A DNA stretch of 64,000 nucleotides, from positions 204,600,001-204,664,000 of the forward strand of contig CM097885.1 in assembly GCA_044892525.1 (NCBI GenBank), written 5' to 3'. Shown here piece by piece: positions 22,656-23,417 of this stretch; within the stretch, counting starts at the first letter, position 1, and each line of letters begins with the position of its first letter. Position numbers and translations under genes: made by a program. The DNA comes from Schmidtea polychroa. Its lineage: Eukaryota. The notes under the pieces were generated by a model. That model did not search any database and was not told the DNA's origin. It saw nothing but the letters and a program-made list of their open reading frames with translations.

Positions 22656-23417
22656 ATGACTACCCCAATCAATACCGAGAAAATTCTTCGTCCTTGTTTT
22701 TCCTGCGCGGACAAAAATGCTGACATCGCGCAGCTTCACCTCCACATCGGGGCTCTCAAGAAAAGAATCGACCTTTACGAAGGCACGTGGTTCTCCCCGC
22801 CACAAATGAAGGAGGAGAGAAGTAAAGTATTGCGGCTAGAACATTGTAGAGATAGCTTGCTGGAGGAAAGCCGATGCCAACGGCTTACAATCAAAGCCCA
22901 ATCAGAAGCCCTCCACAAGGTATACACGGAGGCAGAGCTAGCCAAGCGGGTACGGGAATTCCCCGTCATAGAGAAAACGAACGTTTTCCCTCTTCATCAC
23001 CAAGTATCCAAACCAACTACTACGAGCTGCCAAGGGCATGGATCGTGCCTACCGCCCATCCCAGCTCCAATTTTATCGGGTTCTCAACCTGTGGTAGGTG
23101 GACCTACCGACCCCATCTTGCATCCAATTCTGGTGGCACCCGTCGTCACCCCACACACTGAAAACCACCCGTCGTCCCGCAAACGGAAACGGCCGACCAG
23201 AGCCGAGAAAAATCAGAAACGCCGAGACGCGATGGCTGCTCTCGAGGCGTCCCTATCGGTGGCTCAGTCTACCATAAAAGAAATATCCTCCAACCATTCC
23301 GTTCCATCTAAGGAAATCTTTCGCATAATTCCAGCAGAAGGTATTAAGTATATGTCCGACCACCGATTGCCCGTCGACATCGACGCGATGATCGCGGAAG
23401 GCGAGGGGTTTCCGTAA
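22656..23417 (+). CDS. LTR-encoded 253-aa protein (CxxC, coiled coil, Pro-rich linker, basic NLS-like RKRKRPTRAEKNQKRR), function unknown
   Basis: Intact in both LTRs, with paralogs at 6254-7014 and 8637-9038. CTTTAG|ATG start context. Confidence 0.8.
   Translation: MTTPINTEKILRPCFSCADKNADIAQLHLHIGALKKRIDLYEGTWFSPPQMKEERSKVLRLEHCRDSLLEESRCQRLTIKAQSEALHKVYTEAELAKRVREFPVIEKTNVFPLHHQVSKPTTTSCQGHGSCLPPIPAPILSGSQPVVGGPTDPILHPILVAPVVTPHTENHPSSRKRKRPTRAEKNQKRRDAMAALEASLSVAQSTIKEISSNHSVPSKEIFRIIPAEGIKYMSDHRLPVDIDAMIAEGEGFP

Follow-up and report, generated by a model that had tools for sequence, protein, structure and literature searches.

A protein-coding gene under purifying selection inside the LTRs of a giant Burro-like retrotransposon of Schmidtea polychroa

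Long terminal repeats (LTRs) normally serve as regulatory DNA, and a solo LTR is usually regarded as a non-coding scar. Some retroviral genes extend into an LTR, such as HIV nef and MMTV sag, which overlap U3 and are read from the 3' LTR. In planarians, Burro (GYPSM1) elements are giant Gypsy retrotransposons (PMC6431247). Accessory regulators are known from several related systems. The Gypsy element Cer1 of C. elegans makes CERV from a spliced mRNA, and this protein is required for export of the genomic RNA (PMC10309623). In HTLV-2, the response element is located in R/U5, and only unspliced RNA contains it intact (PMC3434621). Plant LTR retrotransposons can carry additional ORFs in their internal region (PMC7264820).

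We analyzed a 64,000-nucleotide stretch of the S. polychroa genome (contig CM097885.1), referred to here as the window, which contains a giant LTR element with a 253-amino acid ORF inside each LTR. As far as the excerpts of PMC6431247 describe Burro/GYPSM1, the element shares with it a length of more than 30 kb with LTRs, an env-like fusion domain between gag and pol, and ankyrin, RING, MATH/TRAF and weak ubiquitin-like domains. It differs in that no BIR match was found among 15 ORFs at E<=0.1 and in that the TRAF/MATH domain forms a separate ORF downstream of pol. With no BIR domain found, the element is set apart from the description of Burro1 and is classed as Burro-like rather than as Burro1. 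The Burro/GYPSM1 description, in those excerpts, names no LTR-internal gene (PMC6431247). In the titles, abstracts and excerpts that our literature search covered, no ORF inside an LTR is described for Burro elements; the primary papers, Grohme 2018 and Lee 2026, or their supplements may annotate it.

The LTR gene resembles HTLV Rex/RxRE and HIV Rev/RRE, as covered by the excerpts of PMC3434621, in that it encodes a small protein of the accessory type, which has a basic motif and probably an oligomerization region, and it resembles HTLV in the presence of structured RNA in the LTR (compare the RxRE, in U3/R or R/U5). However, there is no homology to Rex or Rev, the export signal is not conserved, and the host element is a Gypsy retrotransposon. 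In addition, the Rex and Rev genes lie near env, whereas the present gene is wholly inside the LTR. Compared by description only, and with the excerpted account of CERV (PMC10309623), both are accessory proteins of Gypsy elements, putatively so here, that come from spliced mRNA and have a Cys motif and coiled-coil parts. The plant ORFs are similar in that an extra conserved ORF occurs in most copies of a family (PMC7264820, in excerpt). Unlike those ORFs, nef and sag, the present ORF is preceded by a putative promoter of the LTR itself and by candidate introns, and its place is probably in U5. Neither Burro elements nor accessory regulators are new in themselves. What appears to be new is a complete, selected gene, putatively fed through introns, downstream of a putative promoter inside the LTR and accompanied by its own covarying RNA elements.

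The element and its LTR gene

The element is flanked on both sides by a 4-bp target duplication, CTGG (Table 1). The two LTRs, both about 4.1 kb, are 99.5% identical with 18 mismatches. This identity, together with the TG...CA ends and the flanking duplication, indicates that the insertion is young. We take the primer-binding-site-like motif to resemble a tRNA-Pro site. Based on Pfam matches, gag carries CCHC knuckles, and the env between gag and pol is a Monjiviricetes-type fusion glycoprotein. The gag-env-pol region of this very young copy occupies three frames, with the env domain divided between the second and third.

Table 1. Positions of the features discussed, numbered from the first nucleotide of the window.
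Feature	Positions	Strand	Basis or remark
LTR element, 30,084 bp, Burro-like Gypsy	19895-49978	+	direct repeats
5' LTR, 4064 bp, TG...CA	19895..23958	+	direct repeat and target duplication CTGG
CCAAT-box (GATTGG) and TATA-like motif, inferred promoter	20383..20406	+	33/40 LTR loci
46-nt GT..AG mini-intron (candidate), short tandem duplication on flanks	20455..20500	+	sequence; absent from some copies
112-nt GT..AG intron candidate, AATAAA at 20717 inside	20629..20740	+	donor 20629, acceptor 20740
Long-range RNA stem, ~20765-20800 paired with 20925-20960	20765..20960	+	covariation
Covarying RNA hairpin, sense strand favored	21050..21140	+
Splice-acceptor-like pyrimidine tract and AG directly before ATG	22630..22655	+
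LTR gene, 253 aa	22656..23417	+	ORF in 5' LTR
Strongly conserved structured box near LTR end, donor-like GTAAG at 23705	23700..23860	+	conservation and covariation
Primer-binding-site-like motif	23966..23983	+
RING-finger accessory ORF	24392..24871	+	Pfam; AG two bases upstream of ATG
gag - env (PF24664) - protease/RT/RNase H/integrase - ankyrin	26912..40690	+	Pfam
TRAF-like RING/MATH accessory ORF, downstream of pol	41389..42777	+	Pfam
3' LTR, purine-rich tract before it	45912..49978	+	direct repeat
LTR gene, second copy, 253 aa	48676..49437	+	ORF in 3' LTR
B-type solo LTR with nested C-type LTR fragment inside	5722..12552	-
B-type LTR-gene copy, frameshifted near codon 35	6254..7014	-
Nested C-family LTR fragment, 3' part deleted	8647..11678	-
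C-family gene copy, truncated (133 of about 250 aa)	8637..9038	-
Structured block of nested C-family fragment	~10590-10745	-	covariation

Several smaller features surround the coding regions. The accessory ORFs starting at 24392, 41389, 43062 and 44210 all have an AG no more than two bases before the ATG, hinting at a set of spliced subgenomic mRNAs, and the conserved donor-like site at 23705 could be a feeder of the RING ORF. The sequence TGATT occurs directly after the 5' LTR, before the primer site (23959-23963), and again directly before the 3' LTR (45907-45911), a placement found in A/B elements as well as in C elements. A tandem repeat at 25458-25642, which separates the RING ORF from gag, varies in copy number among elements. 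The element is inserted beside ORFs at 16764-18047 and at 14596-15144 and 19499-19807. One of these is of the DUF4371 (hAT-type) kind; the remainder comprise a fragment that matches viral or organellar family-B polymerases and a neighboring ORF possibly belonging with it.

A preliminary description of this locus had reported the ORF intact in both LTRs, a close frameshifted paralog and a more distant paralog in a solo LTR, all four keeping the motifs RPCFSCxDKNA, EGTWFSP, EHCRD and QSEALHKVY. The two intact copies were confirmed and differ by one synonymous and two non-synonymous changes, and the four motifs were found in all four window copies. The frameshifted paralog was likewise as described; its frame from the ATG ends after 37 amino acids, and its protein is 79% identical over two pieces. 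The 133-amino acid ORF is indeed related (60% identical over amino acids 12-115), but its setting is not a simple solo LTR, as it lies in a C-type LTR nested in a B-type one. Its relatives elsewhere run to about 250 amino acids, and it is therefore a truncated gene. The suggestion that the gene had been duplicated within the LTR does not stand, because this third copy belongs to a nested fragment of another LTR family (C). Given the nested fragment and the C-type copies of about 250 amino acids, we conclude that there is one gene per LTR in at least three LTR types. Retention across LTR families, also proposed earlier, was upheld by copies of types A, B and C, where the letters denote groups by query and not tested clades. 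Several C-type copies adjoin the primer site or purine tract of Burro-like internal sequence.

Selection on the gene and features of the protein

The 253-amino acid ORF is a real protein-coding gene under purifying selection in several LTR families. Searches of the same genome with three protein queries returned 6531, 6069 and 4703 first-look candidates, which are candidate places and not copy numbers. For each search 150 candidates were scored, and the top 30 of the 150 from each gave a sample of 90 loci. A frame of 245-256 amino acids was present in 60 of the 90, and removal of one duplicate left 59 distinct copies; the other 30 loci, which were broken, of other length or unparsed, were left out before dN/dS was calculated. 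Within the A, B and C query groups, the NG86 dN/dS values for the 59 distinct intact copies are 0.14, 0.08 and 0.09, artificially lowered since the sample favors intact copies and good protein matches. Between A and B the NG86 value is 0.06, with dS saturated, and omega for the N-terminal domain is 0.04-0.07.

Because of the bias in the 90 loci we added a comparison free of search selection, between two copies in the window. After the frame break these have a dS of 1.89 and a dN of 0.128, and their pN/pS is 0.17 in frame versus 1.42, 3.06, 1.12, 0.33 and 3.34 in the other five frames. The value of 0.33 presumably belongs to the antisense frame with the third positions in common. Over 22656-23375, the variation among 51 loci is gap-free and falls mostly on third codon positions, and outside the ORF it is even across positions. 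The protein-level conservation seen in the preliminary description is therefore well founded, with dN/dS between paralogs far below 1 in both comparisons.

Constraint differs between shared and private changes. Changes shared among copies have an omega of 0.12-0.19 versus 0.29-0.44 for private, single-copy changes (Fisher p 0.035, 8e-16 and 3e-10). This is the pattern expected if selection acts mainly in replicating lineages and relaxes after insertion. Many copies are broken, including both minus-strand copies in the window. The earlier proposal that solo LTRs would spread the gene independently of the element is not supported: solo LTRs, having no primer-binding site, gag or pol, are carriers of the gene but not agents of its spread, and constraint is much weaker on private changes than on shared ones.

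The protein contains a CxxC (14-17), a GTWFSP motif between helices at 16-42 and 48-100, a disordered linker, an Arg/Lys-rich stretch (174-190) on a predicted helix at 182-213, and an acidic-hydrophobic tail. In the AlphaFold model the three helices have pLDDT values of about 70-90 and the rest is disordered; the pTM is 0.31, so that only the helices are confident. Both CxxC and GTWFSP are found in 58 of the 59 copies, and the basic stretch (at least 8 basic residues in 17) is present in all 59. The tail pattern occurs in 45 of 59, drawn from all of A, B and C. Beyond amino acid 115, a leucine-rich export-signal pattern was found in 23 of 25 A copies, 11 of 22 B copies and 1 of 12 C copies, partly at unrelated places, and is not conserved across the three groups.

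Neither by sequence nor by fold could the protein be linked to Rev, Rex or any other family searched. No match was obtained in Pfam at E<=0.1, in a PDB profile search at E<=1 or among BFVD viral folds at E<=0.001. A word-seeded protein search gave 438 candidates, none at E<=0.001, and the best ESM Atlas score was 0.83, a weak match to unnamed clusters. At E<=0.001, a profile search of 1.84 billion representatives returned 16 matches, the best with 4e-13, and every one of them fell in the helical region. These distant homologues keep the coiled coil, and in 8 of the 16 an Arg-rich run, 75-104 amino acids after the anchor motif, forms the most basic window. The ten that were looked up are all unnamed single-member records. 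Unrelated host or transposase domains are also carried by 14 of the 16, which suggests chimeric gene models that have swallowed a mobile exon in another genome. Annotators should be warned of such apparent chimeras. Genome searches with the distant homologues gave only matches of 27-51% identity, many of them A, B or C copies.

One distant homologue scored against Pfam REV with an E of 0.0013 and 19.1 bits, below the cut-off of 22; this probably reflects shared composition and not descent. Some, such as P0004, have a class-1a export-signal pattern, although such patterns are common by chance. The preliminary description had singled out the CxxC, a coiled coil and the Arg/Lys-rich motif as suited to a nuclear or RNA-binding regulator. 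Two long predicted helices and the Arg/Lys-rich stretch are present as proposed, but the CxxC does not hold up as a core feature: inspection by eye of the distant homologues showed none ahead of the region that matches.

Candidate leader introns and folded RNA elements

A GATTGG box with a TATA-like motif is the putative promoter of the LTR, and transcription is inferred to start near 20430, about 530 nt into the LTR. Two candidates (L064, L068; 2 of 80 loci) for a promoter close to the ATG were rejected as false positives. In some B-type LTRs, these two among them, a second GATTGG with a TATA-like motif lies roughly 390-420 nt before the ATG; it may be there by chance or may be an internal promoter for the gene.

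Downstream of the putative start are two intron candidates. At 20430-20500 (see also L094, L106 and L116), the end of the first exon nearly copies the 3' end of the mini-intron, as if the mini-intron had arisen by tandem duplication of an AG/GT site. Its absence from some copies may be due to splicing or to slippage, and its layout is kept in A, B and C despite different sequences. In one element (L108, L146) the segment of the second intron is missing from both LTRs, and one base differs at the joint. This loss suggests that the donor and acceptor are used and that a spliced RNA was once reverse-transcribed. An AATAAA or ATTAAA lies 28-45 nt upstream of the long-range stem in 18 of 19 LTRs, compared with about 0.06 expected by composition, where the copies are related and not independent. 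The AATAAA may mark the R/U5 border, which would place the gene in a 3.2-kb U5.

The AG/ATG is found at the indexed start in 19 of 20 A/B loci, and an AG lies within 12 nt in 40 of 40. A single junction from 20454 to 22656 had been proposed earlier; instead, the leader appears to hold several introns, all of them candidates. Exact-pattern searches of the genome gave no copies with the stem or hairpin joined to the ATG (0 matches, with 70 for the acceptor-plus-ATG control) and none with the stem joined to the hairpin. Within the narrow reach of exact patterns, the replicated RNA therefore seems to keep the long intron.

As an RNA check, contigs of four runs whose RNA status was guessed were compared with 19800-27300. 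The X6 contigs cover the ORF and leave 21808-22560 uncovered, a segment that differs greatly between copies. They also cover DNA upstream of the promoter. Apparent joints at 20973>21053 and 21138>22651 are each found in a single contig, with unknown letters between.

Covarying RNA structures of the sense strand lie in the LTR and vary from one family to another. The long-range stem encloses a variable region of 117-164 nt and is followed by a donor-like GT. It consists of 30 pairs, 12 of them with changes on both sides, and 95% of cells are paired over 16 distinct rows. When arms were cross-paired between copies, the mean energy was -51 kcal for own pairs versus -42 kcal for others. However, only in 7 of 17 cases did an arm pair best, or within 1 kcal of best, with its own partner, which counts against full partner specificity. 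The hairpin, present in 19 of 20 A/B LTRs, has 27 pairs (97% paired, 10 with changes on both sides), while slid controls are 44-52% paired; its z values are -4.5 to -7.0. Family C has a covarying domain of different sequence at the same place, with 50 pairs, 97% paired and 13 changed on both sides. The box near the LTR end is common to A, B and C and contains 22 pairs, 13 with changes on both sides. Rfam gave no matches over 19800-26900 at E<=1. An antisense or second coding gene in 20740-21800 was considered and rejected, as this region lacks codon periodicity and has stops and indels in every frame; its conservation is thus attributed to RNA structure.

Possible roles of the protein

We tentatively favor a reading in which the ORF is an accessory gene needed in the replication cycle, encoding a Rex/Rev/CERV-like regulator that would favor accumulation or export of the unspliced genomic RNA. 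From the start inferred near 20430, a leader with several introns would be spliced onto the AG/ATG to give the mRNA of the LTR gene. An LTR is rebuilt from packaged RNA, so the RNA that is reverse-transcribed must keep these introns, and intron-containing RNA must consequently escape splicing and leave the nucleus. By analogy, the N-terminal helices would oligomerize the protein, which would enter the nucleus and bind the LTR RNA structure through its Arg/Lys-rich helix, and the bound protein would favor accumulation or export of unspliced RNA. Solo LTRs would, in this reading, be remnants left by recombination, from which the protein may still be provided in trans. Indirect backing for the analogy with Tat and Rev, already drawn in the preliminary description, comes from the covarying RNA in the same LTR and the Arg-rich motifs of the distant homologues. 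The non-conserved export-signal pattern counts against a Rex-like role, as does the acidic-hydrophobic tail, which would fit an activation domain equally well. The role of the RNA structures might also be a different one, in packaging or in the choice of a poly(A) site.

The main rival, possible though doubtful, is a dimeric nuclear transactivator like Tat, Tax or Tas, in which the basic helix would be a nuclear signal or nucleic-acid contact and the acidic tail would recruit the transcription machinery. Such a protein would raise the activity of the LTR promoter or the read-through of a promoter-proximal poly(A) signal, with the leader structures acting in a TAR-like manner. In its favor are the lack of a conserved export signal and the tail itself, shared across the three groups, which we take to resemble acidic activation motifs. 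The structures lie 330-710 nt after the inferred start and, in nearly all LTRs, just downstream of the AATAAA; they are nevertheless far from the cap compared with TAR, which lies closer to it. A precedent comes from foamy viruses, in which a poly(A) site of the 5' LTR, located downstream of a donor, has to be suppressed (PMC3694450, in excerpt). Against this rival, one element here lacks the AATAAA segment in both LTRs, neither the model nor the viral fold search gave a DNA-binding fold, and an Arg-rich run like that of the distant homologues is found more typically in RNA-binding motifs. A protein acting as a structural RNA chaperone or packaging cofactor, sitting on the leader in the particle and aiding the copying of an unusually long strong-stop DNA of about 3.5 kb, would fit the coiled coil, the basic motif and a primer site 3.5 kb downstream of the putative start across structured RNA. 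We consider this improbable, since gag already has CCHC knuckles, and delta antigen, the nearest Atlas cluster with a named RNA-binding family, scores 0.79, which is below the lead threshold and in the chance range.

An anti-silencing factor that shields the RNA or chromatin of the element from PIWI/piRNA or dsRNA pathways would suit a small basic protein whose gene is the first behind the promoter and has thousands of candidate places, and Burro elements are repressed by SMEDWI-2 according to the excerpts of PMC8532177. It is unlikely, however, as the low omega of the N-terminal domain shows no arms-race signature and the family-specific RNA structures are left unexplained. Service to the host, with expression from solo LTRs and retention by selection on the animal, seems very unlikely. 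In its favor, end-to-end reading of 20 A/B LTRs gave 11 solo LTRs with 4-bp duplications (the others are four 5' LTRs, two 3' LTRs and three unclassed), omega remains below 1 even for private changes, and a Burro1 IAP is reported, second-hand and in excerpt, to help stem-cell survival (PMC13465017). Against this are the far weaker constraint on private changes, the many broken copies, and the choice of loci as best protein matches, which makes omega artificially low.

A selected gene next to conserved folded RNA suggests that the fate of the element's RNA is under the element's own control, in the manner of complex retroviruses. In an extended form, which we regard as rather unlikely, a complex-retrovirus circuit would have evolved independently in the Gypsy lineage, with promoter, introns, gene and RNA response element all in a U5 of about 3 kb, the protein and RNA element co-diverging by family, and solo LTRs licensing export of related elements' RNA in trans. 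If the protein is of the Rex/Rev type, Gypsy elements would have, besides CERV, a second independent example. The gene would then also offer one RNAi target for studying the nuclear exit of unspliced RNA from a giant intron-rich retroelement, in an animal whose stem-cell biology has been linked to Burro elements. In any case, each LTR here is a gene under strong constraint.

The arrangement of copies shows two further patterns. In genome G000, LTR genes occur in runs of three or four with equal spacing of 26-33 kb (C1:72646422/72672815/72699208; C2:37306336/37333732/37361174; C1:145063312-145163613), which suggests tandem elements sharing LTRs or assembly duplication. Even among copies with closely similar ORFs, the LTR part at 21140-22650 varies strongly and forms a mosaic, which suggests that LTR types recombine often.
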